From: an uncultured Acidobacteriota bacterium
GTDB taxonomy: Bacteria > Acidobacteriota > Thermoanaerobaculia > Multivoradales > JAHEKO01
Length of the DNA: 64,000 nucleotides
Reading direction: 5' to 3'
Assembly (NCBI GenBank): GCA_963713825.1
Contig: CAVQNG010000004.1
Span: forward strand, 224,001 to 288,000
The notes below the pieces were generated by a model. That model saw nothing but the letters and a program-made list of their open reading frames with translations, did no database searches and was not told where the DNA came from. Within the stretch, counting starts at the first letter, position 1, and every line of letters begins with the position of its first letter. Shown piece by piece: positions 39,907 to 64,000 of this stretch. The position numbers and the translations under genes were made by a program.

Positions 39907-40316
39907 GGTTGCACTGAGCTGGTCAAATCCATCGCACTGCAACCCATCGGGCGCCAGGCGCCGATTCTTGGAGCGCGACTATAGCGCTGCGCTCGATTGC
40001 CTCGCAAGTAGCGCCGAAGTTCTGACAAGGAGGCGGTCCATACGGGTAGTCCGCCAAGGGCGATTAGCCACACGCAGCAGAACACGTCCTCAGATCAGTT
40101 CCACAGGGAAGTACGGAGCTCTCGATGATCGACGGCCAATGCTGCCGCGCTACGACGAGGAAGCGCGTTATGATCGGCACCGCCAATCGAGGAATCCTCT
40201 CACTCGGAAGGCTGATCGGGAAAGAGGTACGGGCTTGTGTGACCCGTTCGCAATCGAGTCGAGGTGAGGGGACCCAGTTCAACCTATCCTGTCGTCAACC
40301 GGAGAGGCAGCCATTG

Positions 40317-42659: not shown

Positions 42660-42790
42660 CGCCAGATCCTGTGCCTCGAATCCGTACCATTCGGCTTCGT
42701 ATACCATGCGCTCTAGTAGATTCACCGACCGACGGGGTCTTTCAACGAGACGGTTTTCTTCACCCACCTCACGGCGAAACGCGCAGAAAG

Positions 42791-43546: not shown

Positions 43547-43580
43547 GGACTGCAGCAACCCTGAAGATCATGCAGCACCA

Positions 43581-45026: not shown

Positions 45027-46480
45027 GCGACACCGCACGAAGGGTGGCCGCGGGGGCCGGTTGGCTCTATGGCTACCGATGGATCGAGAGGCTGCTCGAC
45101 TTCGTCTCGATCGTGGTGCTGGCGCGCATCCTGGCACCCGAGGACTTCGGCCTCGTCGCCATTGCGGCCTCCTTCGTGGCCATCATCGAAGGGCTGAGCG
45201 CATTCGACGTCAACAAAGCACTGATCCGAACACGCGACGAGCATCGATCGCTCTACGACAGTGCGTGGACCCTGTCTGCGCTGAGGGGCTTCGCAACTGC
45301 GCTGATCATGCTGGCGATCGCACCCTTCGTGACCGATGCTCGAATCAGCGCAGTGCTCGCGGTGCTCGCCCTCAGCCCGCTGATGACCGGGCTCTCCAAC
45401 CCTCGGTTCGTCATGTTCGAACGCGACCTGGTCTATTCCAAGCTCGCCATTCTGACGCTCGGGGCCAAAGTCGTCTCCTTCACGGTCACCCTGGTGCTCG
45501 CGTTGCTCTACCACAGCTACTGGTCGCTCGTGATCGGTCTGCTCGTCGGCGGTCTGATCACCATGATTCTGAGCTATGTCCTGAAGCCCTATCGTCCGAC
45601 TGTCTCGTTCTCCCGGTTCTCCGACATCTTCGCCTTCAGCGGATGGCTGTCGCTGACCAGCATCGTGACCACGCTGTCGATGGAGACCGACAAGCTCATC
45701 GTCGGCCGTTTGCTCGGAGTCGCCGACGCCGGCCTCTACTTCATGACCCAAAGAGTCGGAGTCCTCCCCACTCGAGAGCTGATCAGCCCGCTGCAGCGCA
45801 TTCTGCTGCCCTCGTTCAGCGAGCTGACCCACGACAGGCAACGGCTTCGTCGGGTGGCCTGCGAGTCGATCAACATCCTGGGTAGCCTCAGCATCCCGGC
45901 CGGCTTCGGGTTTGCCCTCATCGCCGCCGACTTCGTGCCGCTCACCCTGGGTGATCAATGGACTTCGATCGTGCCACTGCTGACGATCCTCGTTCCCTAT
46001 CTCGGCCTTCGGGCGACGCTGTCGATGACCTTGCCGTGCGTCATGGCGCTCGGCAAGACAAAGCTGCTGTTCTGGGTCAGTCTCGCCTACGCCTTCGTCC
46101 ATCTCCCCGCATTCATCGGTGGAACGGCCTGGTTCGGTCTGACCGGTGCCATCGTGAGCATCGTGCTGGCCGGAGTGCTGTACTCGTACTTGAACGCCTG
46201 GATGTTGAATCGAACGCTCGATATCTCTCTCCGCGAGATCCTGTCTCGAATCAAGAGGCCACTCCTGGCATCGCTGCTGATGGTAGGTGCCGTCTTGCTG
46301 CTCGACTGGCTCTTACCCACCGAGAGCCCTTCCGAGAGTGGATCCTGGCTGGCGCTTTTGCTCAAGATCGTCGTCGGAGGCGTAGCCTACAGTTCCGCCC
46401 TGTACGGGATGTGGCGTCTCGATGATCGACCCGAGGGCATCGAAAGACGTCTCCTGCAGCTGTTGGATCGCACTGACTAG
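45023..46480 (+). CDS. wzx: Wzx/PST-family oligosaccharide flippase
   Basis: VLARILAPEDFGLVA, SYWSLV, DKLIVGRLLG...GLY, LGDQW; about 12 TM segments. Confidence 0.85.
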   Translation: MSDTARRVAAGAGWLYGYRWIERLLDFVSIVVLARILAPEDFGLVAIAASFVAIIEGLSAFDVNKALIRTRDEHRSLYDSAWTLSALRGFATALIMLAIAPFVTDARISAVLAVLALSPLMTGLSNPRFVMFERDLVYSKLAILTLGAKVVSFTVTLVLALLYHSYWSLVIGLLVGGLITMILSYVLKPYRPTVSFSRFSDIFAFSGWLSLTSIVTTLSMETDKLIVGRLLGVADAGLYFMTQRVGVLPTRELISPLQRILLPSFSELTHDRQRLRRVACESINILGSLSIPAGFGFALIAADFVPLTLGDQWTSIVPLLTILVPYLGLRATLSMTLPCVMALGKTKLLFWVSLAYAFVHLPAFIGGTAWFGLTGAIVSIVLAGVLYSYLNAWMLNRTLDISLREILSRIKRPLLASLLMVGAVLLLDWLLPTESPSESGSWLALLLKIVVGGVAYSSALYGMWRLDDRPEGIERRLLQLLDRTD

Positions 46481-47646
46481 CGCTCGGCAAGAGCGGCGAA
46501 GGCACTCTCGGTCCGAGCCGCAATCGACGGCCAGGTGTGCTGTTCAGCGATCCGACGGCCGCCCTGAGCGAGTCGCGCTCGCAGCTCGCCATCGCCGAGT
46601 ACTTCGCACAAGGCTCTGGCCAGCGCCGTCGGCGAGTCGGGGGGAATGAGCCGGGCGCTGTCACCATCTCGAAGGGTACCGGGTAGTGCTCCGACGGTGG
46701 TGGCCACGACAGGCACACCCAGCGACAACGCCAGGTAGAGGACCCCGGACTGGCTGATGTGCCGATAGGGCATCGCCAGCACGTCGGCGGCCGCAAAGTA
46801 GCGCGACACCTCGGTGAAAGGGATGTACTCGAAGCGGTGAATCGCCCCGATTCGCTGCGCCCAGGAAGACAGCTCGTGGCGCCGAGCCTGACTCAGCCGA
46901 CCGGCATCGCCGGCGACGACCAGCCGTGCTCTGGGACGTGCTTCGACCACGTCCGGCCAGGCTTCGAGCAGGATATCCAAGCCCTTGTACTCACGAATGT
47001 AGCCGAAGAACAGGACCACCTCGTGGTCTTCGTCGAGGCCGAGGCTCTGTCGGGCCGAATCGCGAGCCAAGGGTCCGCCGTCGGGATTGAAGAATCCATA
47101 CTCCCCATGGGGGATCACCACCACCCGTTCAGGTTCGAGGGAGATCTCCTCGAGCAGTCTTTGCCGGTCGAAGTCGGAGTGAGCGACGACCAGTCGGCTG
47201 AGTCGATGCACGCGCCGAAAGAGGGCGTCGCGGAAAGGACGACGCTCGTGCGGGGTGACCACATGCGCCGTGGTCACGACCGGGGCCCCCACCAGCCGCA
47301 GGAGTGCGACAAAGAGCAGTGCGCTGCTATTTGTGCTGTGGACGTGGATCACGTCCGGTCGCAGGCGGCGCGCAAACGCGGCAACCGAGATAACATCGAA
47401 GACCGCCTCGACGCTGGTGGCCAGCTCCAGACTGCGCTGCGGCATCGCCCTACGATGCCGATGGGTGAAGCGTGCAAGCGTCTTGACCAGACGTAGATTC
47501 GACGGCAAGCTCCGGTCTTCGAGCTCGTAGGCGGCTGCCGTCACCAGGGTGACCTCATGACCGCGCTCAGCCAGCGCGCAGGAGAGATTGAAGGTGTAGT
47601 GGGTCAGTCCGCCGCGGCCAAAAGTCTCGATCTCGAGTATCCGCAT
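46477..47646 (-). CDS. GT4-family glycosyltransferase
   Basis: GHEVTLVT, VIPHG, FFGYIREYKGLD, PYRHISQSGV; start at ATG 47646. Confidence 0.88.
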   Translation of the reverse strand: MRILEIETFGRGGLTHYTFNLSCALAERGHEVTLVTAAAYELEDRSLPSNLRLVKTLARFTHRHRRAMPQRSLELATSVEAVFDVISVAAFARRLRPDVIHVHSTNSSALLFVALLRLVGAPVVTTAHVVTPHERRPFRDALFRRVHRLSRLVVAHSDFDRQRLLEEISLEPERVVVIPHGEYGFFNPDGGPLARDSARQSLGLDEDHEVVLFFGYIREYKGLDILLEAWPDVVEARPRARLVVAGDAGRLSQARRHELSSWAQRIGAIHRFEYIPFTEVSRYFAAADVLAMPYRHISQSGVLYLALSLGVPVVATTVGALPGTLRDGDSARLIPPDSPTALARALCEVLGDGELRARLAQGGRRIAEQHTWPSIAARTESAFAALAER

Positions 47647-47796
47647 CTGGCAACTCGCAGCGCTGTTGCGAACCGTGACCGCAGTTCTGCGCCACTCGGC
47701 TCTACCGCCGGATCGTACCATCGCCGCGGGAGGTGCCGAAAAGAGTCGCGCTCGATAGACTGGAACCGATTCTCGACCAGATCGCAGATCCGTCCC

Positions 47797-50700
47797 ATGA
47801 CAACCCGCCAACCCAACGACCGTGCCGCGTTGCTCGAGCAGGCTATCCGTCGCAAGAGAGCCGCAGCCGGATCAGACACTCCGACCATGATGCCGCGGCC
47901 GGCCGACCAGCCGGCCTGTCTCAGCGACATCCAGCGCGGCCTCTGGCTGCTGCACCAAATGGATCCGCGCTCGCCGGCCTACAACCTCACGAGTGCCTTT
48001 CGGGTCGAGGGTGCCCTCGATCCAGAGAAGCTCGAGCGGGCGCTCAACGAGGTGGTCTCGAGACACCGCATCCTGCGCTCGACCTTTCGACGCCAGGGAG
48101 AAACCGTGCTCCAGGTCGTGCATCCCCACTCGCCTCTGGCCTTGGAGGTCGTCGAAGCGGAAGACGGTGAGGGACTGGCGGCGACAGTCGACGAAGCCAG
48201 CAAGCCCTTCGATCTCGAGACAGGACCGTTGATACGGCTGCAGCTCGTCGAAGAGAGCTCCAAGGAGACTCGCTACTTGCTCCTCGTCTTGCACCACATC
48301 CTGGCTGACGAGAAGTCACTAGCTCTTCTCTGGGAAGAGCTGGGCGAGGCCTATCGTAGTCGACAGGGCGCTACCGAGCCGGCTGTCCAGTACGACGATT
48401 ACGTGTACTCGCTGAGCCTCCGGGAGCCGGCCGAACGGGACCGCCAACTCGAAGACTGGCGGCGACGCCTTGAGCCGCTCCCCGACGACCTGCGGTTCCC
48501 GTTCGAGCGGTCGCCCTCAGAAGGGCTTGCAGGGCGAGGACGACTCCTCAGTCGCGCTCTGCCTGAGCCGGTGCTGGAAGGGCTCCGGAACCTCGCATCC
48601 TCGAGCGGTGCCACACCCTTCTTGGTGGCCGCTTGTGCGTTCAGGCTCTTGCTGCAGCGCTACACGGACAACCAGCGCGTCGCTTTCGCCACACCGGTGT
48701 CGACGCGCTCGCACCCGGCGACCGCTCGCATGATCGGGTACTTCACCAATCCCGTGGTGATCCCCACTCACCTCGATGAACAGCAGCCCGTGCTGGAAGC
48801 GGTTCAAGGCTTCAGCCGGCAGCTACGAGCTCTGCTCGTGCAAGCATCACTGCCGTTCCAGTCGCTCGCCGAGGCCCTCTCTCCACGACGACAACGCGAC
48901 CGCCACCCGATCTTCCAGATCATGTTCGTGCACCAGGAGAGTATCGCTCCACCCGAGCTGGGAGAAGCCCGACTGCAGCCGCTGGCCCTCGACCTGGGGG
49001 CATCGAAATTCGATCTCACCCTCTTTGTTACGGAGGGCCAACGCGAACTCGAGATCGCCCTCGAATATCGCGTCGATCGCTACGCCCAGACCTGGATGGA
49101 GCGCCTACTCGACCACTACGGGACCCTGCTGGAGCAGCTGCCGACCGATCCGAACAGAACCGTTGCCAAGGTATCGATGCTCGGCACCGAGGAGCAGCGC
49201 AGCCTTCTTGCTTTGGCAAAGGGGACTGAGCTCGATGCTGACAAGATGACCCTCTTACCGCGGCAGATCCTCGATCGAGTGAGTCGCTCGCCCCAATCTC
49301 CCGCCCTCTCCTGTGGTGACTCCAGACGGAGCTATGGCGAACTGGAAGCCTCCGCGAGAAGAATCGCGACAAAGCTCGTGGATTGCGGCGTCAACGTTGG
49401 CGACCGCGTCGGTGTCTTTCTGAACCGCTCGGTCGAGATGGTCGAAGCGGTTCTCGGCGTCCATCTGGCCGGCGCGGCCTACGTCCCCCTCGATCCGACG
49501 TATCCGGAGTCGAGGAACCGCACAGTTCTCGAGGACGCCGATGTTGCCGCGGTGCTGACGACTGCCTCGCGGGGCGACGAGCTCTGGCGCGGTCCATGGG
49601 CGACTATCGAGGTCGATCGCATCGATACTGATGTCGCCCGAGGCGCAGTGCTGCCCGGACCATCGGCCGACTCCCCTGCGTACATTTTGTACACCTCGGG
49701 TTCTAGCGGTCGCCCAAAGGGGGTGGTCGTGACGCAGGCGAATCTGCGCGCCTCCACAGCGGCGCGCCTGCAGGTCTACGAAAAGCCCCCCCGTCGGTTC
49801 CTACTCTTGCCGAGTATCGCATTCGACAGTTCCGTCGCCGGTCTCTTCTGGACACTGGCGATGGGTGGCTGCCTGGTGATTCCAAGCGATGAGGAGGCTC
49901 TGGATCCTCGTCGTCTGGCAGGGCTCGTGGCCCGGGAACGAGTGAGCTCTCTACTCTGTGTCCCGTCCCTCTACGCTCAGCTGCTGAGGGCTGACGGCGG
50001 ACTGCTCGATGGCCTGGAGACGGTCATCGTAGCCGGAGAGAGCTGCACTCCGTCGTTGGTGAACGAGCACTTTCGAACCCTGCCGAAGACCAGCCTCTAC
50101 AACGAGTACGGCCCCACCGAAGCGACGGTCTGGGCGACGGTGCATCCGTTGGAGATCGGTGCTGCCGGCTCTTCCGTGGCCATTGGCCGGCCGATTCCGG
50201 GTGTGCGAGTCGATGTGCTCGACAGACTCGGCCGCCCGGTTCCAGTCGGTATCCCCGGTGAAGCCTGGATCACGGGACCGACTGTAGCCCAAGGCTACTG
50301 GCGGCAGCCGACCCTTACCGCGGAGCGCTTCGTCATCGACGCAGAGTCAGCGCGCGGCGAGAACCGGTATCGAACGGGTGACCAGGTGGCGTGGACGGCA
50401 GCCGGGCACCTGCTCTTCCTGGGTCGAGAGGACGAACAGATCAAGATTCGTGGCTTTCGAATCGAGCCAGGTGAGGTCGAGGCTGCGCTGCTCGAATCCG
50501 AGAAGATCCAAAATGCGGCCGTCATCGCCCGGCCGCTCGGTTCGCCGACGACCATGGCCTCAGAGACCAGCGACCATCAGCTGGTCGCTTTCGTCGAGAC
50601 GGCTTCCCCTGACGCCAGAGCAGGTTGGCGGAAAGACCTGTCCGCGCGCCTGCCCGAGCACATGATTCCGAACCGCCTGGTCGTGCTGCCCGAGCTGCCT

Positions 50701-51846
50701 CGCCTTCCCAATGGCAAGGTCGATCGACAACGACTCCAAACGATACCGCTGCAGCCCGAGGCACCCTCTGCAGAACGGCGAGCGGTCCTGGACTCTCGTA
50801 TGGAAGCTCTGCTCTCACTCTGGGAGGGCCTCCTGGGACGCTTCGGTATCGGAGTGGACGACAATTTCTTCGAGCTTGGCGGTCACTCCCTACTCGTGCT
50901 CGAAATGGCACTGGCGATCGAGCGGGACTTCGAAGTCACCCTGAGTGTCGCCGAGGTCTTCGAGAATCCTACGGTCCGTCAACTGGCCGACAAGATCGCG
51001 CAGCAGCGGGGATCGGCTACCGGATACCAACATCTGTTTCCCATCCAACCGACGGGCCAGGGGGCGCCCTTCATCGTCGCCGTTCCCCATTTCTTCACCG
51101 CGATGTTCGCGCAGCGCTTTCGGAATGAACGGCCGGTTTATGGGCTGCGGGGCGTCAGCCTCCGACCCGAGGGCAACCTGGGCCGCTGGCGGACCATGAC
51201 CGAGCTCGGGGAAGATCTCGTCGACGAGATCCATCACAGGTTCGGGGCATCGAGCTGCATCATGGTGGGCTACTCTTTCGGTGCCTCGATGGCCTTCGAA
51301 GCGGTACGAATCATGGAGGAGCGTGGCCTTGCGGTGCGTTCTCTCTACCTGATCGCACCGATGCCGTTGGACTTCTTCCCTCTCGGGCCCTTCCGCCTGC
51401 AGCTCGACGGCCTCAGTCGACCAGTGCAGGACCTCTCGGCGGGTGAGGCTCTTTTCCGCTACGCACGCAGTCACAACCCGCTGACTCTGCGGCCTTATCA
51501 GCGGGCCAAGCGACGGCTCGTCATCGAACCCTGGCGCCGGATGCTGTGCGCCACTGGCAGATTGCGCCAAGGCCTCGGACTGCCGCTGACACCACGAATC
51601 CTCTATGCCGACGTCCGTGTCGACCGATTTCGATTGCATGCCGCCTATCAACCACGACCGATCCGTACGCCGACGGTTCTCTTCAATGCCCGAGAGACCG
51701 TTACCGACGCCGCCGCCACCTGGCGCCCATTCTTCCGCGGACCTTTCACCGTCGTGCCGACGCCCGACCCCCACCTCGACGACGACTCCATCGAAGCGGC
51801 TCGACGGGTCATCCTCGATCATCTGCGCGATCTGAAGGGAGACTGA
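47797..51846 (+). CDS. NRPS C-A-T-TE (A domain code DSALIAEVWK, His-like)
   Basis: C: HHILADEKS; A: YTSGSSGRPKG, NEYGPTE, YRTGD, PNGKVDR; T: FFELGGHSL; TE: GYSFG. Confidence 0.92.
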   Translation: MTTRQPNDRAALLEQAIRRKRAAAGSDTPTMMPRPADQPACLSDIQRGLWLLHQMDPRSPAYNLTSAFRVEGALDPEKLERALNEVVSRHRILRSTFRRQGETVLQVVHPHSPLALEVVEAEDGEGLAATVDEASKPFDLETGPLIRLQLVEESSKETRYLLLVLHHILADEKSLALLWEELGEAYRSRQGATEPAVQYDDYVYSLSLREPAERDRQLEDWRRRLEPLPDDLRFPFERSPSEGLAGRGRLLSRALPEPVLEGLRNLASSSGATPFLVAACAFRLLLQRYTDNQRVAFATPVSTRSHPATARMIGYFTNPVVIPTHLDEQQPVLEAVQGFSRQLRALLVQASLPFQSLAEALSPRRQRDRHPIFQIMFVHQESIAPPELGEARLQPLALDLGASKFDLTLFVTEGQRELEIALEYRVDRYAQTWMERLLDHYGTLLEQLPTDPNRTVAKVSMLGTEEQRSLLALAKGTELDADKMTLLPRQILDRVSRSPQSPALSCGDSRRSYGELEASARRIATKLVDCGVNVGDRVGVFLNRSVEMVEAVLGVHLAGAAYVPLDPTYPESRNRTVLEDADVAAVLTTASRGDELWRGPWATIEVDRIDTDVARGAVLPGPSADSPAYILYTSGSSGRPKGVVVTQANLRASTAARLQVYEKPPRRFLLLPSIAFDSSVAGLFWTLAMGGCLVIPSDEEALDPRRLAGLVARERVSSLLCVPSLYAQLLRADGGLLDGLETVIVAGESCTPSLVNEHFRTLPKTSLYNEYGPTEATVWATVHPLEIGAAGSSVAIGRPIPGVRVDVLDRLGRPVPVGIPGEAWITGPTVAQGYWRQPTLTAERFVIDAESARGENRYRTGDQVAWTAAGHLLFLGREDEQIKIRGFRIEPGEVEAALLESEKIQNAAVIARPLGSPTTMASETSDHQLVAFVETASPDARAGWRKDLSARLPEHMIPNRLVVLPELPRLPNGKVDRQRLQTIPLQPEAPSAERRAVLDSRMEALLSLWEGLLGRFGIGVDDNFFELGGHSLLVLEMALAIERDFEVTLSVAEVFENPTVRQLADKIAQQRGSATGYQHLFPIQPTGQGAPFIVAVPHFFTAMFAQRFRNERPVYGLRGVSLRPEGNLGRWRTMTELGEDLVDEIHHRFGASSCIMVGYSFGASMAFEAVRIMEERGLAVRSLYLIAPMPLDFFPLGPFRLQLDGLSRPVQDLSAGEALFRYARSHNPLTLRPYQRAKRRLVIEPWRRMLCATGRLRQGLGLPLTPRILYADVRVDRFRLHAAYQPRPIRTPTVLFNARETVTDAAATWRPFFRGPFTVVPTPDPHLDDDSIEAARRVILDHLRDLKGD

Positions 51847-54381: not shown

Positions 54382-57300
54382 TCAAGCGGGCGGCTCGACC
54401 CCTTCTGCAATTCGTCCGCCGTCGTCCTCGGTCAGCTCCGCGACATCAGCGAGGATCTTCTCTTCCGCAATCCGGGCTAGCCTTCCCAGCGTCGTATGCG
54501 AGAACAAGGACTCCAAGGGAAGGTCGATGTCGAACTCACGACAGAGCTGGAGCATGACCTGCATGGCGGCCAGAGAGGTACCACCGAGCTCGAAGAAATC
54601 ATCGTCGGCCCCCACAGTGTCGACTTCCAGCTCCTGCTGCCAAGCTTGGCCCAGAAACTCCTCCACCGGACCTTCGAGCTCTCGGAACGGCTTTTCCCTA
54701 GGCCTTTGATAGACCTCCGATCGAAGCGCTTCCTCGTCGACCTTGCCGCTCGCCGTCAAGGGGATGGTGTCGACACGCTGAAGATGGGTGGGGATCAGAT
54801 AGGGCGGTAAGCGCTCACCGAGCTGGCTCGAGATCGTGTCGACGGATATGTCCTCAGCGCAGACAACGAAGGCCTCGAGAGCGACCTGATCGGAATGCGT
54901 CGAGAGTCGCTCGACGTCATATCCAATCTCCCTCAGCATCGTCTTCACGTCATTGACGTCGATGTCGTCGTCGAGCTCGGCGAGAGCCGCCGCTCGGGTC
55001 TTGTGCCCCAGACGAACGTCCCAGCTGTAGGGCAGAGCGTAGTTGTGGAAGCCGCGCTCACGGCGATGGACGTAGATCCCCACGTCATTGATCAGGCAGT
55101 TGGTCGAGCGTCCCGTGTCCTCAGGGCGCACCCAGGGCACCTTCTGCCGCAGGTAGGCGTACATCTCGTCCAGACCGACATCCACATAGCGGAAGAAATC
55201 AACGAACTGGACCGCCCGGAAGACCTCGTCATCCTCGAACACCGCAGTACCGAGTGCGCGCGTCACCTCGTCACGAACCCTGTGGTAGACCTTGCGCGCC
55301 GCCAGCACAGCTGCATCGACCTCGTCCGGACTGCGAAGCCCGTCGCGAAACATGTCCTCGACGAGTCGCGTCTCGAACATCTGTCCCCTCGACAGACCAG
55401 TGACAATGATCGGAATTCCCAGCTCACGCGCTCGCTTCATGCTCAAGGTGTAGATCGTCTTGAAGCAGCCGTTGCAGACATTCGAGAATCGCATCAGACT
55501 GTCGCGAAAGATCGCGTTCATCGCTCGGGTCGTGGCGAGCTCGACTGGAACACCGAGCTGCTGGGTCACCCTTCGGACGTTGTCCTTGGCGCCTTCGGAA
55601 ATGAACCCATTGTCGAGGCTGAAGGCATAGACCGAAAGCCCCATGTCCACCAGCCGACACAGAGCGTAGGTGCTGTCCTTCCCACCGCTGTAGAGCATCA
55701 AGCAGTCGTAGGGCGCGTCATGTTGTCGGGCCGACTCCTCGAAGATTCGACTCAGGTCCTCTTCACTCTTGAAGTAGGCCTGAGCGTGCTCCTTGATCGA
55801 CTCGTAGGAGCGGCAGATGCTGCAGACGCCCGCCTCGTCGAGAGCTGCTCGAGGGTAGTTCGACGGCAGACCGCAGCGCACACAGTGGCGCAGCTGCTGA
55901 TCCAACTCGAGCGTCACGACAGGATGGCGACGCGCCACGACGGCACATTCGTCGATCCCTGCAATCGAGAGCAGTGCCGTTTCGATCTCCCCAGGCTCGA
56001 CGCGGAAGCCCGACACCTTGAGTTGGCGGTCGAATCGACCGAGATACTCGAGCTTGCCGTCGTCGAGCATTCGAACCTGATCGCCGGTTCGATAGCGGCG
56101 CTGCGCCGGATGCGCCGGATGCTCCTGGAAGCGTTGCTGGGTAATCTCGTCCGGGCCGTGGTAGCCGCGCGCCAGACCGTAACGGGAGATCCACAACTCA
56201 CCCGGAACCCCGACCGGCACCGCGGTCAATGCTTCGTTCAAGACCTCCACGGTGACATGGTCTGCAGGAACGCCGATGGGAACGCTCAGGCCTCTATCGC
56301 TCGAGGAATCGTAGCGGTGGGCCACGCAACCGACGACGGCCTCCGTAGGGCCGTACTCGTTGTAGAGCTCGACTCGATCCTGGAGCCCGGCGACCAGCCG
56401 CGCTGCGAGCTCCGTTCTCAGGTTCTCTCCACCGGCGACGATGCGACGAACCCGAGAACCTTCAAGACCCATGCTTTCGAGCAGTGACAGATGCGACGGC
56501 GTCAACTTGATGAAATCGACCGCGTTGGTCTCGACGACGTCCTGTAGCGCGGTGTCCACTGGCCCATCCGGTTCCGGGTAGATCTCGAGGCAACCCCCCG
56601 TGATCAGCGGTAGAAAAAGGCTGGTGACCGTCAGATCGAACGCCATCGAGGTGACGAGCGGGAAGGTGAAACGCTCACCCCGCACATACTGGCGGTCCGC
56701 CCAGCAGAGATAGTCCACCAGGCCGCCATGCTCGATGAGGACACCCTTCGGCTTGCCGGTGGATCCCGAGGTGTACATCAGGTAGGCCAACTCGTCGAGG
56801 CCTGGGACTTCTCGATCCAGGGGTGTCCCGCTCCCGGAGCCCAGCGCCTCGGCGATCGACAGCTGGTCGGCTCCGGAGACCTGGGGCTCGACCCCTCCGA
56901 GATCGCCGAGCAGCAGGAGTCGAGCGCCAGAGTCCGCGACAATCTGGTCCAATCGTGCCTGTGGGGTTCTGGCCTCGATGGGCACGTAGGCGGCTCTTGC
57001 ACGCAAGGTAGCGAGAATCGCGACCACGGCCAGAGACGACCTCCGACTCAAGATGGCGACACGGTCTCCCGGTTCGACGCCTCCTGCGACGAGGACCGCG
57101 GCGAGTTCTTCCATCTGGTCACGGAGGCCGGCGTAGGTCGTTTCGACTCCTCCCTGGCGTAGTGCCACCCGGCCGGGGTGGCGCTCCGCCTGGGCTTCGA
57201 ACATCTCGATCACCGATCGTTCAGGCAGCGGCTGCGAATCGGTGGCATTGAGAGTGGCCAGTACCTGTCGCTCTTCAGCGACTAGCAGGTCGACCTCGGC

Positions 57301-58617
57301 GATCGGCCGATCCGGATCCTCCAGCAGCGCCGCCAACAGAATCTCGAAGTGCTCGAGGCTGCGGCGACGCAGTCGCTCAGGCAGCGCCCTCTCGTTGTAG
57401 TCGAAATGCAGCGTGTAACCGCCAGTCCCCGAGAAATCGTGCACCTGGACTCGGAGGGCATGTACGCTGTCACCATGCCCCGGATGCACCCAGTCGACTT
57501 CGACCGGACAACCTGCGAAATCGCTGAACGCCGACGGAAAGTAGTTGAGTACCACGTTGCTCGCCGCGGCACTGGAGGGAGCGCTGCTCCCGGGTAAGGC
57601 GTGAACCAGGAATCGCCGGGCTTCCTCGAGACAGCGGGCTCCGAGTGAGAGGAACGTGTCGCCCGACTCGACTCGCGCCGCAAAGGGAAACAGTTCGATG
57701 AACAGACCCAGAGAGCGCTTGGCGTCCGGCGTCGGGCGACCGGCGATCGGGGCATCGAAACTCAGTTCCTGCCATCCGCTGATCCGGTGGAGCCAGCTCA
57801 CCAGGAGCGTGGCGAAAAGTGCGAATCGAGAAATCTCCGCCGACAGGCTCGAAAAACCGTCCTGCTCGCAGAGTCGATCGAGAGCCCTCGACCGCCCCTC
57901 GCCGAGCTCGAGGCTCAACCGTCGACTGACCGTGCCGACCGGGCGCCCGTCACGACCGTAGAAGGACACCGAACGCCCAGCACGTTCACTGCGGGCTGCC
58001 CAATGCTCTTCGGCCTCGGATCGGGTCTCCGCCGAACCGCGTTGCAGAGAGTCAGCGGTCGGATAGTAGTCGGCGAGACTGGCGCGCTCGGCTGGCACAT
58101 CACCACCGCTCCGCGACTGGTACTCGGCCCCGACCTCGCGAAACAAAAGCTGCGTCGACCAGGCGTCGGTGATGAGATGGTGTTGATTCAGGTACCACCC
58201 GGTGCGGCCCTTTCCCAGACGGACTAGGACGCTGTCGATAAGTGCGCCCTCGAGCGACAGTGCTTTGGCGCAGCGCTGGTGGCACCAACTCTTGAACTCG
58301 TCGAGCGGTTCGGACCGCGAGGTGAAGTCGAGCACCTCAGTGGGCGTCGTGTGCTCTGCGAGCTGGATTCGTACTCCTCCACCTTCCTGCTCGACCAACC
58401 GAGTCCGCAACGCGTCGCTGCGTTCCACGACGCGTCGCCAGGCTTCACAAAACAGCTCCGTCTCGAGCTCCGCAGGAAAAACGAACGCGAAGGCCATGTT
58501 GTACAGCGGACTGCCCGGATTGAGCCTTTGTCCAAGCCATATCTGTGTTTGGCTGTGGGTCAGCTCAATACTGGCGGCTCCGAGATCGCCCATTTCGCTG
58601 TTGGTGGTGGCTGTCAA
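54382..58617 (-). CDS. NRPS C-A-T with Asn-type A domain (DLTKVGEVGK) interrupted by an AANH/PP-loop (AlbIV/CysH AMDH-like) domain
   Basis: C: HHLITDAWS; A: YTSGSTGKPKG, FDLTVT, NEYGPTE, YRTGD; ~335-aa insert with CVRC, CSIC, SGGKDS, CNGC, STNC; A10 ASGKVD; T: FFELGGTSL; start TTG 58617 after AAGGAG (alternative ATG 58593). Confidence 0.9.
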   Translation of the reverse strand: MTATTNSEMGDLGAASIELTHSQTQIWLGQRLNPGSPLYNMAFAFVFPAELETELFCEAWRRVVERSDALRTRLVEQEGGGVRIQLAEHTTPTEVLDFTSRSEPLDEFKSWCHQRCAKALSLEGALIDSVLVRLGKGRTGWYLNQHHLITDAWSTQLLFREVGAEYQSRSGGDVPAERASLADYYPTADSLQRGSAETRSEAEEHWAARSERAGRSVSFYGRDGRPVGTVSRRLSLELGEGRSRALDRLCEQDGFSSLSAEISRFALFATLLVSWLHRISGWQELSFDAPIAGRPTPDAKRSLGLFIELFPFAARVESGDTFLSLGARCLEEARRFLVHALPGSSAPSSAAASNVVLNYFPSAFSDFAGCPVEVDWVHPGHGDSVHALRVQVHDFSGTGGYTLHFDYNERALPERLRRRSLEHFEILLAALLEDPDRPIAEVDLLVAEERQVLATLNATDSQPLPERSVIEMFEAQAERHPGRVALRQGGVETTYAGLRDQMEELAAVLVAGGVEPGDRVAILSRRSSLAVVAILATLRARAAYVPIEARTPQARLDQIVADSGARLLLLGDLGGVEPQVSGADQLSIAEALGSGSGTPLDREVPGLDELAYLMYTSGSTGKPKGVLIEHGGLVDYLCWADRQYVRGERFTFPLVTSMAFDLTVTSLFLPLITGGCLEIYPEPDGPVDTALQDVVETNAVDFIKLTPSHLSLLESMGLEGSRVRRIVAGGENLRTELAARLVAGLQDRVELYNEYGPTEAVVGCVAHRYDSSSDRGLSVPIGVPADHVTVEVLNEALTAVPVGVPGELWISRYGLARGYHGPDEITQQRFQEHPAHPAQRRYRTGDQVRMLDDGKLEYLGRFDRQLKVSGFRVEPGEIETALLSIAGIDECAVVARRHPVVTLELDQQLRHCVRCGLPSNYPRAALDEAGVCSICRSYESIKEHAQAYFKSEEDLSRIFEESARQHDAPYDCLMLYSGGKDSTYALCRLVDMGLSVYAFSLDNGFISEGAKDNVRRVTQQLGVPVELATTRAMNAIFRDSLMRFSNVCNGCFKTIYTLSMKRARELGIPIIVTGLSRGQMFETRLVEDMFRDGLRSPDEVDAAVLAARKVYHRVRDEVTRALGTAVFEDDEVFRAVQFVDFFRYVDVGLDEMYAYLRQKVPWVRPEDTGRSTNCLINDVGIYVHRRERGFHNYALPYSWDVRLGHKTRAAALAELDDDIDVNDVKTMLREIGYDVERLSTHSDQVALEAFVVCAEDISVDTISSQLGERLPPYLIPTHLQRVDTIPLTASGKVDEEALRSEVYQRPREKPFRELEGPVEEFLGQAWQQELEVDTVGADDDFFELGGTSLAAMQVMLQLCREFDIDLPLESLFSHTTLGRLARIAEEKILADVAELTEDDGGRIAEGVEPPA

Positions 58618-58624
58618 CGGCGAT

Positions 58625-58930
58625 TCACTCCTTGAGGCCGGCTGGGGTGCTCTGCTCAGCAGACTCGACGCTGCCACGGACATAGTCAGCGAGCACTGCG
58701 ACGCTCTGGAAGTTCTCGACGACGAAGCCCGAAGACTGCAGGTCGACCTGGAACTCCTTCTCGACGAAGGCCGCCAGACGCAGCGCGCCGATCGAGTCGA
58801 GCACTTCCCCCGTCAAGAGGTCGTCATCGCGCTCGATCGTCGTTTCCGGGGCCAGCAACTCGCGCCGCAGGAACTCGAGTATCCTGACCTCGATGTCTCC
58901 AATCGACAGCCCAGCTTCGCTCTCAGTCAT
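58625..58930 (-). CDS. Stand-alone carrier protein (PltL-like PCP/ACP)
   Basis: DDDLL.GEVLDSIG...FVEKEF...ENFQSV. Confidence 0.88.
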   Translation of the reverse strand: MTESEAGLSIGDIEVRILEFLRRELLAPETTIERDDDLLTGEVLDSIGALRLAAFVEKEFQVDLQSSGFVVENFQSVAVLADYVRGSVESAEQSTPAGLKE

Positions 58931-60515
58931 CCTGTTGCCCTTCCTTCTGCGCCAATCGCTGTCGCAGGGCATTGCGGTCAATCTTGCCGGTCGGCGTCCG
59001 CGGCATGGCCTCGACGACCGTGATGTCCTCCGGCAAGCTGTGTTGAGGCAGAACGCTCTTCAATCGAGAGAGGACGTCACGGCGTCCGGGCCACCCGCGG
59101 TCCGCGACCACCACCACCGACTGAAGAGCCCAGCTTCCCTCTCCGTCCGGGACGGTGAAAGCAGCGGCCTCCTCGACCGGATCGAGTGTCAGCAGCGCCA
59201 TCTCGATCTCCTCGAGCTCCACACGGTGTCCCCGAATCTTGACCTGGCGATCGGCCCGTGTGACAAACGTCAGATTGCCATCTGCGCGCACCCGGACCCT
59301 GTCCCCGGTGCGGAAGTAGATCTCTTCGAGGTCGCCACCGACCGGCCGCCGAATCAGGACTTCGCGGCTGCGCTGCGGTTCGCCCCAATAGCCCGACATG
59401 ACCGTCGAACCGCGGACAAGCAACTCCCCCACCTCGCCATCGGGTACCGAACGAAGCTCGCTATCGACAACCGCGGTGCTCGAAGTCCAGCACGCCTTAC
59501 CGATGGGAACCGGGTTCTCGAACGACTCCCCCTCGGGCAGATGGTAGTAGGTACAGACATTGACCTCGGTCGAACCGTAGACGTGACTGAAACGAGCCTC
59601 CGGCAGCTGTCTTTTGATCCGGCGTAGGTGCTTGTTGGGAAAAATCTCACCGGCGAAAAGGACCCATCGCAGGCAGGACAAGTCTCTCGCCTCGAGATCG
59701 CCGCGCACCGACAGCTGAACGAGGGCGGTGGGCACCGAGTACCACACCGAGACTCGCTCCTTTTCGAGCCCGGCCGAGAGGCTGCCGGGCATCATCAGCA
59801 TGGCCGGCGTCAAGATCACGGTGGTAGCGCCGGCACGGGCAGCGGCGTAGTAGTCGAAGGTGGCGAAGCAGGTGTGATGCGACGAGTGGTTGCTAAGGCG
59901 ATCGTCACCGTTCAATGAATACTCATCGACAGCCCAGTCGACGAAGCTCATCGCGCTCCGATGCGTGTGGAGAATCAGCTTCGGGGTGCCAGTCGTGCCC
60001 GAGGTATGAAGGATGTAGGACGGATCCATGTCGATGACCTCGACGCCGGGTGGCCGGTCGGTGGCCGCCTCGGAGACGTCCGACCATGGATGGCATCGTC
60101 GAGGCCTGTCGGTCTCGGCCGCCTCCAACCCCACTACATGTTCCACCCATGGACAGCGCTCGAGTACATTGACCACGAGCTGTTGCTTGCCCGGTTCCGT
60201 GACGAGATACCTGGCTCCGGTAGCCCGCAAGATCCGAGCGACCCTCTCGACTGGAGATCGGGGATCAATCGGCACCAGGACTCCGCCCGCCGCGAGCACC
60301 CCGTAAAAGCCCACGGGCACCTTCAGTCCTTTACTGAGCAGGACCGCGACGCGGTTCCGGCGCTGCAGTCCGGCCTCCAATAGGACTCCTGCAAGGCCGT
60401 TCGAGTGCCGGGCCAGCTGCTCGTAGCTCAAGGCCTCGCCATCACAGCGGACGGCGCAAGCGTCGGGATGACGCAGTGCGGCCTCGTCGATCATGCGGTG
60501 GACCAGCATTACCAT
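58923..60515 (-). CDS. Stand-alone adenylation enzyme, PltF/RedM-like, with altered pocket (CFFYLAVVCK)
   Basis: YILHTSGTTGTPK, SFVDWA, VWYSVPTAL, VLFAGE.FP, TEVNVCTYY, FRTGD, PTGKIDR; GGAGG RBS before ATG 60515. Confidence 0.85.
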   Translation of the reverse strand: MVMLVHRMIDEAALRHPDACAVRCDGEALSYEQLARHSNGLAGVLLEAGLQRRNRVAVLLSKGLKVPVGFYGVLAAGGVLVPIDPRSPVERVARILRATGARYLVTEPGKQQLVVNVLERCPWVEHVVGLEAAETDRPRRCHPWSDVSEAATDRPPGVEVIDMDPSYILHTSGTTGTPKLILHTHRSAMSFVDWAVDEYSLNGDDRLSNHSSHHTCFATFDYYAAARAGATTVILTPAMLMMPGSLSAGLEKERVSVWYSVPTALVQLSVRGDLEARDLSCLRWVLFAGEIFPNKHLRRIKRQLPEARFSHVYGSTEVNVCTYYHLPEGESFENPVPIGKACWTSSTAVVDSELRSVPDGEVGELLVRGSTVMSGYWGEPQRSREVLIRRPVGGDLEEIYFRTGDRVRVRADGNLTFVTRADRQVKIRGHRVELEEIEMALLTLDPVEEAAAFTVPDGEGSWALQSVVVVADRGWPGRRDVLSRLKSVLPQHSLPEDITVVEAMPRTPTGKIDRNALRQRLAQKEGQQDD

Positions 60516-60648
60516 CTGTCGCTTTCCGACCTCCCGTCCACGGGATCGGCCAGCGAGCAGCACACCGTGGCAGTCACTGCCAGGCGCGATCCTTCGAGAC
60601 AACACCACCCGGTCGAGGACGACCGAACTAGGGCCGCAAGAGAAGCGT

Positions 60649-61923
60649 TCATGGACTCACCGTTCGGAGCAGCGATTTCACCCGCTTGGTCAAATGGAAG
60701 TCGAGGCCGAAAGCCCGTTCGACCATCCAAACACAAGACACCAGAATCATCACGATGGCGGCCACCGGCAAGACCAGATTGCGGTAGATGGCCACCCTCC
60801 GTATCAGAAACAGCGCCGGGAACAACACTGCCACGATGAAGAGGACACCAACTCCGATTCCCAGATCGAACGCGAAGAGAGACAGGCCGAAGTTCTCGCC
60901 GAGGACGCCGAGACCCGAGATCGCAGCAGCGAAACCGAAACCATGAAACCAGCCGCAGACCAAGACGACGATCCACTTCCGACTTCGAAACAGTGGGATC
61001 AGGATGTTGGCCGCTGCCAGTGCCACCGTCAAGGCAATGGCCACCTCGACCAGACGCTCCGGCAGACGGAGCGCTCCCAGCGCAGCGAGGGCCAGCGTCA
61101 GGCTGTAACCGACGATGTAGGCGACAACCAGCTTGGCGAGATCGAGAAACGCCGGCTTGAACTCATCCACCGGCTGCCATGCTCCGTCGGTCCCGCGGAC
61201 CAGCACTGCCGGCAACAGCAATGCGATCAGGAACAGAGCGTGGTCGAAGCCGAACAGCATGTGCTCGAGCCCCAGGACCAGAACCGCGATGAATCCACGC
61301 AGTCGACCCGAGGAAGTCAAATCGAGCTGCTGACGTCGACCGCCAGAGCTGAAGACCAACGCAATCTGGTTCTCGTTCGCGAACGTCCCTGTTGCCCAGT
61401 TGTGCTCGATCAGCAGGTAGCCGCGGTGGTCGGGATCCTCATCCAAGAGGACCGAATAGTCGACGGTCAGAACGTCGGGAACGTCGTCGAAGCCACTGAG
61501 GTCGAAGGAGAGCAGGGCAAAACCATCGTGGGCCTGGAGATACTCGTGGGTGGTGAATTCGATGGCCAGAGGTCCCTGCTCTGAGGACAGCTTCACGTGT
61601 TCGAGGTAGTAGTCGTGCAGAAAGCCGATTCTCGCGTCGAGGTTGTCCTCCGTGATCTCGCCCTCAGTACCCGAAAACCCGAGCGCCGGATTCAGGTCCG
61701 AGAGCGCTATCTCGAAGCGTCCGCCCAGGCTTTCCGGGTAGACCTGGAGATAGAGGTAGCTCTCGCCCGTGTTGTGAGCACCCATCGGACCCGTCGAAAA
61801 GGCGATCAACGCGATGCAGAGCATCCACCGCAAGGCCTTACCGACCGGTGTCGAAGCGGTTGGAGCTATGCGGCGTTCTGCTGCCGTCGGCTTGGTTCTG
61901 TAAAACAGTTCGAGTCCGCTCAT
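60649..61923 (-). CDS. HupE/UreJ-like membrane protein with N-terminal extracytoplasmic domain
   Basis: Signal ...GAH, LGLEHMLFGFDH.LF, SLTL.LA, VE.AIA, HGFGFA, F.LG; its ATG overlaps the upstream stop. Confidence 0.78.
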   Translation of the reverse strand: MSGLELFYRTKPTAAERRIAPTASTPVGKALRWMLCIALIAFSTGPMGAHNTGESYLYLQVYPESLGGRFEIALSDLNPALGFSGTEGEITEDNLDARIGFLHDYYLEHVKLSSEQGPLAIEFTTHEYLQAHDGFALLSFDLSGFDDVPDVLTVDYSVLLDEDPDHRGYLLIEHNWATGTFANENQIALVFSSGGRRQQLDLTSSGRLRGFIAVLVLGLEHMLFGFDHALFLIALLLPAVLVRGTDGAWQPVDEFKPAFLDLAKLVVAYIVGYSLTLALAALGALRLPERLVEVAIALTVALAAANILIPLFRSRKWIVVLVCGWFHGFGFAAAISGLGVLGENFGLSLFAFDLGIGVGVLFIVAVLFPALFLIRRVAIYRNLVLPVAAIVMILVSCVWMVERAFGLDFHLTKRVKSLLRTVSP

Positions 61924-63065
61924 CCGAGCCCCCTGAGTCCAGCAATCAGATTTCGTTGGATCTCGGAAGTACCGACGTAGAGTGTCGTGGCGAGGGCGTC
62001 ACGCAGCTCTCGCTCCAGTTCGTAGTCGACCATGTATCCGTAGCCTCCGAAGATCTGCACCGCACTGCGACAGATCGCCACGTACGCCTCGCTAGTGGCG
62101 AGTTTGGCGAGGGCCGACTCCCGGGCCGCAATACCGTGAGCCGACCGATGCCAGGCGGCCCGGTACAGCAAGAGACGAGCCGACTCCAGCTGTAGCTCCA
62201 TATCGGCGATGCAGTGGGCAATCGACTGATGGCTGCCGATCGGAACCGAGCCTGCAGTTCGCTGGCGAGCATGATCGACACAGCGCTCCAAGATCCGCTG
62301 CATCACCCCGACAGCCGGAGCCATCACCAGTATCCGCTCCACATCCATCGTATGGTTGAAGATCATCATCCCGGAACCGATCTGCCCCACGACTGCCGAG
62401 CCCGAAACGCGAGAATTCTCCAGAAAGAGTTGTGACATCGGACTGGTTCGCAGTCCCATCTTCTCGATCGGTTCTCCCACCGTCAGCCCTGCGGTGTCCC
62501 TGGGGATCAGGAAGCAGCTGAGACCAGCCAAACCGCTGCCTCCCGTCCGAGCGTAGATGATGAAGAGATCCGCTACCGGAGCGTTGGTGACAAACGTTTT
62601 CGATCCGTTCAGGATCCAGTCTCCATTCTCCTCGACCGCCGTGGTCTCGAGCGCGAATGCGTCCGAACCCGAGTTCGGTTCCGTGATTCCGGTGGCACCG
62701 ATCGCAGTGCCCGATGCCAACCGTGGCAGCCACTCGTCCTTTTGCGCGTCACTTCCGAACGCACAGAGCGGGCCGGCACACGACGCGGCATGCGCGGTGA
62801 CCGAGAAGACCAGTCCGTTGTCCAGAGCCCCATACCCGGCGCCCTCGAGCACAGCGACAGCGGTCAGCAGATCGTGCCCCGTGCCCTGCCATTGCTCGGG
62901 GATCATGATGCCCTGCAAGCCGAACTCGGCGCACGCATCCCACAGCTCTCGAGAGAACCGGCCGGCGCGATCGCGCTCGATCACTGCGTCGACCAGGCGA
63001 CTCGAGGCAAACTCCACGGCGCCGCGGTTTAGCCTCGTTTGGTCATCGGTCCAGTCGAACTCCAC
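61920..63065 (-). CDS. Acyl-CoA dehydrogenase family, prolyl-PCP dehydrogenase-like (PltE/RedW/AnaB)
   Basis: GYGALDNGLVFS..AH...C..P...FG, TEPNSGSDA, KMGLRTSP, M..ER, GGYGY, GTSEIQR; GGAGG RBS. Confidence 0.85.
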   Translation of the reverse strand: MEFDWTDDQTRLNRGAVEFASSRLVDAVIERDRAGRFSRELWDACAEFGLQGIMIPEQWQGTGHDLLTAVAVLEGAGYGALDNGLVFSVTAHAASCAGPLCAFGSDAQKDEWLPRLASGTAIGATGITEPNSGSDAFALETTAVEENGDWILNGSKTFVTNAPVADLFIIYARTGGSGLAGLSCFLIPRDTAGLTVGEPIEKMGLRTSPMSQLFLENSRVSGSAVVGQIGSGMMIFNHTMDVERILVMAPAVGVMQRILERCVDHARQRTAGSVPIGSHQSIAHCIADMELQLESARLLLYRAAWHRSAHGIAARESALAKLATSEAYVAICRSAVQIFGGYGYMVDYELERELRDALATTLYVGTSEIQRNLIAGLRGLG

Positions 63066-63237: not shown

Positions 63238-63999
63238 TCAAGGCGGCTTCAATGGCCCTTCGAGGCCTACCGTTCTCGGGGTCCAGTCCCGCAGGCTGAT
63301 GGTCGCATCCGGCTGAGTCACGGCCAAAGCCGCTGCGAAGCCCGGGGCGACTCTCAAGCGGTGCACGAAGCCCTTCGTCTCTGAGTCGCGGGGGTCCACC
63401 CCTACGACCTCGGCGTGGGTGTCATCGGAAACGAGACGGATCTCGAAGCGGCTGAGCGGCACGGACAGACCTCCACCTCGAGCCTTGACCCAGGCTTCTT
63501 TGCACGTCCAGTAGTCGAAGAACAGTAGGGATCGGACCTCGGGTAGCGCCGCGGCGATCGCGGCGGCCTCGGCTGGCGTGAAGTACCTCGAGGCAATCTC
63601 GGTGTGGTCCATGTCGTCTCGGATCTTCTCCAGATCGATACCCAATTCCCGGCGCACGGCGACTGCGAGCAGAGCCATCCCATGGGAATGACTCGTATTG
63701 AAGCCGAGGTCCTCCCATGCCCTCTTGCCGACCAACCGAGGCTTGTCCTGAGGACCGTAATCGAAGCGAAGATTCCGCGGATTCTCCTGCAGGTAGAGGG
63801 CGAGCACGGTGCGGAGCTGTCCCCGACGCACGATGAAGTGCCGACGAAGCTCCTGGAACGAGAATCGCGACGCCCTGTGCAGCTCGTCTTCACTCAACAG
63901 CGACCTCAGGGAATGCACGACCCCATCGGACACGCTCAGAGAGGCGCGCCAGACGTGCACCTGGGTGTCGGTCAGATCAGGGCTGGAGGATTCGCTCAA
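63238..63999 (-). CDS. Sfp-type 4'-phosphopantetheinyl transferase (5' end at window edge)
   Basis: LSEDE..RA.RF, FNTSHS, LGIDLE, FF..WTCKEA.VKA.G.GL. Confidence 0.92.
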   Translation of the reverse strand: MSESSSPDLTDTQVHVWRASLSVSDGVVHSLRSLLSEDELHRASRFSFQELRRHFIVRRGQLRTVLALYLQENPRNLRFDYGPQDKPRLVGKRAWEDLGFNTSHSHGMALLAVAVRRELGIDLEKIRDDMDHTEIASRYFTPAEAAAIAAALPEVRSLLFFDYWTCKEAWVKARGGGLSVPLSRFEIRLVSDDTHAEVVGVDPRDSETKGFVHRLRVAPGFAAALAVTQPDATISLRDWTPRTVGLEGPLKPP

Positions 64000-64000
64000 A

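Follow-up and report, generated by a model that had tools for sequence, protein, structure and literature searches.

The subject of this analysis is a nonribosomal peptide synthetase (NRPS) module encoded in a 64,000-nucleotide stretch of DNA (hereafter the window) from an uncultured Acidobacteriota bacterium (assembly GCA_963713825.1, contig CAVQNG010000004.1, positions 224,001 to 288,000 of the forward strand). The module carries an asparagine code (hence Asn module), and its adenylation (A) domain is interrupted by a nested domain that we assign to the AMDH type known from the CysH and AlbIV proteins. The gene, its domains and its motifs were located as follows, with coordinates given in the window:

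54382..58683, minus strand: NRPS elongation module P0001, 1433 residues, C-A(insert)-T (stop-free translation, Pfam and motifs)
57259..58569, minus strand: condensation (C) domain, residues 39-475 (Pfam PF00668, E 1.6e-45)
55924..57201, minus strand: adenylation core to motif A8, residues 495-920, with the Asn code DLTKVGEVGK (PF00501 and TIGR01733, 368 bits against a cut-off of 317)
54919..55911, minus strand: nested AMDH-like domain, residues 925-1255, with a zinc-ribbon tetracysteine, the PP-loop SGGKDS and a CxxC...C triad (TIGR03573, AlphaFold2 (AF2) model and Foldseek)
54709..54900, minus strand: rest of the adenylation C-terminal subdomain (A9 and A10), residues 1262-1325 (Pfam PF13193 at residues 1268-1314, and motifs)
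54472..54654, minus strand: thiolation (T, carrier) domain, residues 1344-1404 (Pfam PF00550, E 1.3e-15)
55981-56040, minus strand: A8 motif GRFDRQLKVSGFRVEPGEIE, residues 882-901
55873-55884, minus strand: CVRC motif, residues 934-937
55813-55824, minus strand: CSIC motif, residues 954-957
55672-55689, minus strand: SGGKDS motif, residues 999-1004
55465-55476, minus strand: CNGC motif, residues 1070-1073
55096-55107, minus strand: STNC motif, residues 1193-1196
54790-54810, minus strand: A9 motif LPPYLIP, residues 1292-1298
residues 1312-1318, minus strand: A10 motif SGKVDEE

The C domain of the Asn module is intact, with its HHxxxD motif at residues 168-176 (HHLITDAWS); the AMP-binding domain detected by Pfam spans residues 495-842, and the carrier serine motif GGTSL is found at residues 1367-1371. 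Motifs A8 and A9 are separated by 390 residues, compared to about 57 in the ordinary neighbouring module (the latter counted by eye). Thus, some 330 extra residues are nested in the A domain. A previous reading of this DNA, made from the letters alone (the sequence-only reading), had proposed an insert of about 335 residues between A8 and A9, and the motif spacing bears this out; the interval it gave, 54890-55900, corresponds to residues ~928-1265 of the Asn module, and the CVRC, CSIC, SGGKDS, CNGC and STNC motifs were all located in the insert where it had placed them. The same reading had described the insert as being in cis with a C domain and had seen no p-aminobenzoate modules. Both points stand: the C domain is intact and the Asn module therefore elongates in cis, and the sole other NRPS module of the cluster has a histidine code.

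The ten-residue specificity code of the Asn module was read from the GrsA numbering register set against motifs A4-A5 and A10. By this approach, the code DLTKVGEVGK named previously was obtained again; it is an Asn code and is identical at nine of ten positions to DLTKIGEVGK, which is given as compatible with a 3-cyanoalanine ('Cya-3') moiety in the part consulted of an A-domain signature survey (PMC12283262). Locus counts here and below refer to the best 80 of 405 relatives confirmed in a species-genome scan, all 80 of which are of the in-line type. The cyanoalanine-listed code DLTKIGEVGK was found exactly (10/10) in 41 of the 80 loci and DLTKVGEVGK in 29, for a total of 70 loci with DLTK[IV]GEVGK, plus partial reads. 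The genome of the window has one copy of the Asn module.

Judged by its predicted structure and its motifs, the insert is a zinc-ribbon PP-loop ATP pyrophosphatase domain with the fold of the N-acetyl-sugar amidotransferases (NASAT). An AF2 model of the insert, built on an alignment of 53 homologues, reached a pLDDT of 90.5 and a pTM of 0.89, and its top solved match by Foldseek was 8wex, a Legionella N-acetyl sugar amidotransferase (E 7.9e-12, probability 1.00, TMq 0.64, TMt 0.57, with ~18% identity in the structural alignment). The next matches were YcfA, TtuA, LarE, asparagine synthetase and NcsA, at TMq 0.28-0.40. At the level of sequence, the WbuX model TIGR03573 was matched by the insert with E 8.6e-31 and 107.6 bits (102.8 bits in the context of the whole protein), a score below the curated cut-off. 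TtuA, with which comparison had likewise been suggested by the sequence-only reading, gave 18.8 bits with its family model (cut-off 450). The LarE model gave 19.2 bits against a cut-off of 150, and at the level of sequence the insert falls outside both families.

The hallmarks of the amidotransferase family, as described in the sections seen of PMC10607449, are a zinc-binding tetracysteine of the form CXXCXn[GN]XCXXC and a PP-loop SGGXDS, which is SGGKDS in LpNASAT. Both are present in the insert and invariant in all 53 aligned sequences, the tetracysteine as C12-x2-C15 ... G30-V-C32-x2-C35 and the PP-loop as S77GGKDS82 (insert numbering). The NASAT enzymes (WbuX, WbpG and LpNASAT 8wex; TIGR03573) provide the best structural match, share the zinc tetracysteine pattern and have an identical SGGKDS, and activation of an amide with ATP is presumed for enzyme and insert alike. 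Unlike NASAT, the insert is nested in an NRPS and presumably acts on a carrier-bound amino acid rather than on the N-acetyl group of a sugar.

A further three cysteines, C148 and C151 of the CNGC motif and C274 of the STNC motif (insert numbering), were likewise invariant (53/53), and HMMER placed the CNGC pair on the CxxC of 8cnz, a structure with the PDB title 'mmLarE-[4Fe-4S]'. Sulfur transfer by LarE of Thermotoga depends on a tricoordinated [4Fe-4S] cluster that is bound by SGGXDS together with CXXC-C, and the same is stated for TtuA (PMC9283937, as far as the text was available). A PP-loop and a CXXC...C triad at comparable spacing are thus common to the insert and to TtuA, NcsA, Thermotoga and Methanococcus LarE and YcfA; by contrast to NASAT, these proteins show far weaker similarity to the insert in fold and sequence, and the characterised AMDH products are sulfur-free. 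The triad was considered as an AMDH-specific novelty and this was rejected. Four stand-alone amidotransferase-like proteins of 352-411 residues (L094-L097, in genomes G510, G693, G425 and G570) share 30-35% identity with the insert and have retained the zinc tetracysteine as well as the CxxC...C triad; the triad is therefore older than the insertion into the NRPS. Three of these four were scanned against NCBIfam, and all scored under the WbuX cut-off.

The insert is the slowest-evolving and most conserved segment of the Asn module. In the 63 loci with a full-length match, the median identity to the window protein was 63.3% for the insert, compared to 38.7% for the C domain, 45.5% for the A core, 37.5% for the A9-A10 segment and 41.0% for the T domain. 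Of 8000 candidates scored in a word-indexed search, 2169 proteins passed E <= 0.001, and the best 120 of these matches were 61-99% identical in the insert and mostly of ~1400 residues with the same architecture. When representative proteins were searched exhaustively, 3017 matched at E <= 0.001; of these, 1335 reached 1e-10 or better and 586 reached 1e-30 or better, a number that, like the matches to TIGR03573 and 8wex, shows the resemblance not to be due to chance. Among the 150 top-ranking representatives, most have an insert that begins near residue 900, as in a C-A(insert)-T first module; in longer forms there is an additional C/E-type domain or the following module is fused on, and one form fuses the upstream A domain and carrier protein. 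By deposited titles, the 80 loci represent about ten phyla (Acidobacteriota, Actinomycetota, Pseudomonadota, Planctomycetota, Verrucomicrobiota, Cyanobacteria, Bacteroidota, Gemmatimonadota, Chloroflexota and Nitrospirota). The domain is nonetheless sparse, with 4 carriers among 401 genomes from one order and 7 among 401 from one phylum.

In a few loci, namely L089 (G347:C28, 9052-13058), L013, L033 and L040, the reading frame of the module is broken inside or close to the insert; in the G347 copy the match breaks at about residue 205 of the insert. These copies may be pseudogenes or assembly errors.

The insert was compared to CysH and AlbIV by way of their published description, in those portions of PMC7966384 that were available. 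Both are stand-alone Asn-activating modules with an inserted 38-kDa domain that bears SGGKD, the first of seven conserved core regions, and the inserted domains of the two proteins share 69% identity. Once loaded with Asn, CysH shows a shift of -18 Da only when the AMDH domain is present, deletion of this domain abolishes the isoasparagine and cyanoalanine products, and purified CysH is reported to be 'dark brown'. Many orphan homologues of the AMDH domain were already noted in that 2021 paper. Similarly to CysH and AlbIV, the Asn module has a domain of ~38 kDa (330-340 residues) with SGGKD nested in an Asn-activating A domain. As size, host domain, motif and specificity code all fit, the insert was filed as AMDH-type, and the AlbIV/CysH-like character put forward in the sequence-only reading is supported at the level of these published descriptions. 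By contrast, the CysH and AlbIV modules are described as having no C domain and as passing their residue to a p-aminobenzoate assembly line via a shuttle protein, with a hydroxylase and an O-methyltransferase as partners (PMC7966384, same portions), whereas the Asn module is an in-line C-A-T elongation module in a three-unit line that ends in histidine.

In the 401-genome sample from the order of a Lysobacterales metagenome-assembled genome (MAG), which was searched for an AlbIV-like gene, there were four carriers, and the two inspected (L088 and L089) had the same cassette as the window and no AlbIV-like gene. The 401-genome sample from the phylum of a Deltaproteobacteria-titled MAG gave seven in-line copies and the four stand-alone amidotransferase-like genes described above, and no CysH or AlbIV. 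Representative proteins of ~930 residues were considered as candidates of the stand-alone CysH/AlbIV type and rejected, since they are MAG fragments on short contigs. Matches to the insert in a protein atlas comprised amidotransferase-like and PP-loop clusters only.

The Asn module is part of a gene cluster whose further members are listed here:

58625..58981, minus strand: stand-alone carrier protein (PF00550, E 6.6e-5, over the cut-off), with the true start probably downstream of the listed TTG
58923..60608, minus strand: stand-alone adenylating enzyme, code DYAYLAVVCK (TIGR01733, 335.9 bits against a cut-off of 317.4)
60649..61923, minus strand: HupE/UreJ-2 membrane protein (PF13795, E 6.8e-30, residues 216-376)
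61920..63065, minus strand: flavoenzyme of the acyl-CoA dehydrogenase (ACAD) family, nearest to prolyl-ACP dehydrogenase (PDB 4irn)
63238..64000, minus strand: Sfp-type phosphopantetheinyl transferase (PF01648 and PF22624), extending ~45 nt beyond the window
47557..51846, plus strand: second NRPS, C-A-T-TE, code DSALIAEVWK for His (Pfam)
51848-52702, plus strand: methyltransferase (Pfam), syntenic in 16 of 80 loci
52680-53591, plus strand: sulfotransferase (Pfam), syntenic in 17 of 80 loci
53602-54375, plus strand: GT2 glycosyltransferase (Pfam), syntenic in 24 of 80 loci
42671-43546, plus strand: sulfotransferase-like gene, clade-specific accessory
43527-45026, plus strand: GT1-like gene, clade-specific accessory
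45023-46480, plus strand: MOP flippase, clade-specific accessory
46477-47811, minus strand: GT4, clade-specific accessory

Conservation of the cluster was assessed by tblastn of the window proteins against the 80 loci at a coverage of at least 0.5, with many loci cut by contig ends. By this approach, homologues were detected for the dehydrogenase in 59 loci, the second NRPS in 55, the HupE/UreJ-2 protein in 53 and the carrier protein in 34, while the stand-alone A enzyme gave 78 matches, a number that includes cross-matches to other A domains. Lower counts were obtained for GT2 (24), GT4 (18), the sulfotransferase (17), the methyltransferase (16) and the flippase (16). The methyltransferase, sulfotransferase and GT2 genes form one operon with the His module, convergent with the minus-strand genes, of which those for the phosphopantetheinyl transferase, dehydrogenase, HupE/UreJ-2 protein, stand-alone A enzyme and carrier protein are upstream of the Asn module. 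The accessory block at 42671..47811 was syntenic in 15-18 of the 80 loci, all of the window's own clade, and the tailoring and flippase genes are limited to this acidobacterial clade.

The code DSALIAEVWK of the second NRPS is among the His-activating signatures in the part consulted of PMC12283262, and this code or a one-residue variant was found in 37 of the 43 loci in which the second NRPS was assigned. Two loci from Xanthomonadales-order genomes differ in this position: in L088 (6123-8813) and L089 (6934-8787) the Asn module is followed by a C-T(-TE) module without its own A domain, and the carrier of that module must therefore be loaded in trans. In the window, the C-A-T-TE gene as listed begins with ~255 nt (47557-47811) that it shares with the convergent GT4 gene, and no domain matches its first ~120 residues; the true start is probably near residue 110. 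The phosphopantetheinyl transferase, cut by the end of the window, is seen in full in L098 as an open reading frame of 268 residues. A link of the cluster to the genes past the window was considered and rejected, as the B12-dependent ribonucleotide reductase and ABC system that follow the phosphopantetheinyl transferase are unrelated to it. On the other side, an open reading frame of 844 residues (40125-42659, plus strand), directly upstream of the accessory glycosyltransferase block, had no Pfam or NCBIfam match and one 40%-identical homologue, in a single locus of the 80 (L019).

The genes for the stand-alone A enzyme, the free carrier protein and the flavoenzyme would provide the starter unit. 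The best solved relative of the flavoenzyme was 4irn, 'Prolyl-ACP dehydrogenase', at 344.6 bits (next match, 294.8 bits), and the PigA and RedW models gave 357 and 349 bits, both below cut-off. Among solved single-domain relatives of the A enzyme, the best was 6o6e, an L-proline-[prolyl carrier protein] ligase (245.6 bits). Based on these similarities, the A enzyme probably loads proline or a similar small acid; a literature search for proline specificity, made with candidate code strings, gave no match, and none of the 14 control genomes of the genome search belongs to a pyrrole producer. Prolyl-carrier starter systems are known from anatoxin (AnaB/AnaC/AnaD) and from the pyrrole pathways (PltE/PltF/PltL and PigA/PigI/PigG). 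Like these, the cassette combines a stand-alone A enzyme with a small carrier protein and an ACAD-family dehydrogenase; unlike these, its dehydrogenase scores under the PigA and RedW equivalog cut-offs and residue 235 of its A enzyme varies between clades. In homologues from 63 loci, this residue co-varies with residues 301 (A/G) and 330 (V/Q), and different clades may load different starters. In 22 of the 80 loci (L034:3459-4565, L041:2310-3398, L053:3249-4349 and 19 others), the genes for HupE/UreJ-2 and the dehydrogenase flank a gene of the ornithine-cyclodeaminase/mu-crystallin family, whose product would supply proline or pipecolate.

The HupE/UreJ-2 protein has a signal peptide followed by a histidine, His50, which is invariant in 53 of 53 sequences and preceded by alanine in 48 of them (an Ala-x-Ala-type site). 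Conservation is also high for its two membrane motifs, HX5DH and FHGxGFA (50-53 of 53 sequences; 50-52 for HX5DH). With a signal peptide, His1, an N-terminal periplasmic domain of ~170 residues and a PF13795 membrane domain, the protein has the architecture of the 'anglerases', which are described in the available text of a 2025 paper (PMC12537917) as PF13795 proteins in which a signal peptide precedes an invariant His1 and whose periplasmic domain binds Cu2+ and Ni2+. The likeness is one of architecture. In the main text of that paper, as available, the words 'NRPS', 'nonribosomal' and 'non-ribosomal' are absent and no NRPS neighbours are reported. A TonB-receptor plug domain was detected in 7 of 102 other flanking open reading frames from 19 diverse loci, and a TonB receptor flanks the cassette in L089. 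A metal-related role of the cassette is plausible from this neighbourhood, and its product may be a small metal-binding peptide.

From the domain anatomy, conservation, specificity codes and gene neighbourhood observed above, we propose, with somewhat more confidence than doubt, that the AMDH-type domain, in an ATP-dependent reaction, activates the side-chain amide of Asn bound to the carrier and converts it to a nitrile or to isoasparagine within a three-unit line of starter, modified Asn and His. In this proposal, Asn would be loaded on the carrier domain of the module itself, and the nested domain would activate its carboxamide oxygen at the expense of ATP. Loss of the activated oxygen would leave a nitrile (beta-cyanoalanine), or rearrangement would give isoasparagine, as for CysH. 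The stand-alone A enzyme would place a small imino or carboxylic acid, probably proline, on the free carrier protein, where the AnaB-like flavoenzyme would dehydrogenate it. The C domain of the Asn module, as the first elongation module, would couple this dehydrogenated starter to the modified Asn, after which the C-A-T-TE module would add His and release the product. In the organism of the window, the product would probably then be methylated, sulfated and glycosylated.

Several observations weigh against this proposal. The insert scores 107.6 bits against the curated TIGR03573 cut-off of 203.2, and its AMDH assignment was made from the published description of CysH and AlbIV rather than from a sequence alignment to either. 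The partners of CysH, a hydroxylase and a shuttle protein, were not seen in Pfam scans of the cluster neighbours, and the outcome of the reaction may therefore differ here. The C148/C151/C274 triad is superfluous for the ATP-only dehydration suggested in the literature and is a better fit to a [4Fe-4S] site. For the starter, the A enzyme has D at residue 235 in the clade of the window and G or E in many others, which weakens a simple assignment to proline; moreover, the window cluster has no cyclodeaminase-family gene, the two copies in the genome being on other contigs.

The cysteines open an alternative route, in which the triad would hold a [4Fe-4S] cluster, the side-chain (or backbone) amide of Asn would be adenylated, and cluster sulfide would convert it to thioasparagine, a soft ligand for copper or nickel. 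The invariance of the triad, the placement of its CNGC pair on the CxxC of 8cnz, the correspondence of SGGXDS and CXXC-C to the cluster site of Thermotoga LarE and TtuA (PMC9283937, text available) and the presence of YcfA, TtuA, NcsA and LarE among the Foldseek matches are all in line with such a route, as are the Cu/Ni-type permease kept in the cassette and the dark brown colour of purified CysH (PMC7966384, portions available). It is the invariant triad and the brown CysH that keep the thioamide alive. However, the characterised relatives give a shift of -18 Da and isoasparagine instead of +16 Da, and the cystobactamids and albicidin have no known thioamide according to those same portions. 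In addition, the LarE and TtuA models (cut-offs 150 and 450) reach ~19 bits, the sulfur transferases match the fold far less well (TMq 0.28-0.40) than 8wex does (0.64), and no gene for a sulfur carrier or cysteine desulfurase was seen in the Pfam scans of the cluster. The triad, being found also in the four stand-alone amidotransferase-like relatives, is not specific to the family. On balance, we regard formation of a thioamide as unlikely.

Ancestry among the amidotransferases similarly sustains a second alternative, that ammonia or an internal amine is added to the activated carboxamide to give an amidine, which may cyclise onto the dehydrogenated starter to form an N-heterocycle beside His. 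The enzymes nearest in fold and family, N-acetyl sugar amidotransferases, convert acetamido to acetamidino groups, a dehydrogenase expected to give an electrophilic starter accompanies the module in 59 of 80 loci, and with His as its neighbour such an amidine or heterocycle would bind metal well. Against this, Pfam found no glutaminase or other ammonia-donor domain in or next to the module, the idea of the heterocycle has no direct support, and the characterised AMDH members yield a nitrile or isoasparagine (PMC7966384, portions available); we hold this outcome to be no more probable than the thioamide. Finally, inserts that are inactive are known in interrupted A domains, and the score under the curated family cut-off would suit a structural remnant without catalysis in a module that incorporates plain Asn. 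Since no segment of the module is more conserved than the insert, which has a PP-loop and cysteine motifs invariant in 53 of 53 sequences and a confident model, an inactive insert is very unlikely.

Conversion of the Asn amide to a nitrile or isoasparagine by the AMDH-type domain is the account that we carry forward. On the wider role of the cassette, we advance a tentative idea, which we consider possible rather than probable: that it defines a widely distributed new class of Cu/Ni-binding peptide, a modified Asn-His with a dehydroprolyl or pyrrolyl starter, in which the group derived from the AMDH domain (nitrile, amidine, thioamide or ring) would tune or complete the metal site. Uptake of the metal or its complex would proceed via the His1 anglerase-HupE/UreJ-2 protein and, in some Gram-negatives, also via adjacent TonB receptors. 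The X-X-His arrangement of the proposed product may be likened to the amino-terminal Cu/Ni-binding motif of proteins.

No paper describing the cassette was found in our literature search. The domain type is known; what the papers searched do not describe is that, among the closest relatives found, it mostly occurs in an in-line module of a conserved three-unit cassette, and that a His1 HupE/UreJ-2 permease is coupled to this cassette. AMDH domains have been studied in only two antibiotic pathways, in both cases in stand-alone loading modules. The cassette thus provides a defined target for AMDH chemistry, including the role of the invariant cysteine triad, and since several of its carriers are cultured strains according to their record titles (among them Neolewinella xylanilytica DSM 29526, Agaribacillus aureus BMA12, Lewinella sp. 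IMCC34183 and Verrucomicrobiae bacterium DG1235), its biology is approachable at the bench. If the proposed role holds true, the cassette would represent a new family of small His-containing peptides tied to copper or nickel uptake.

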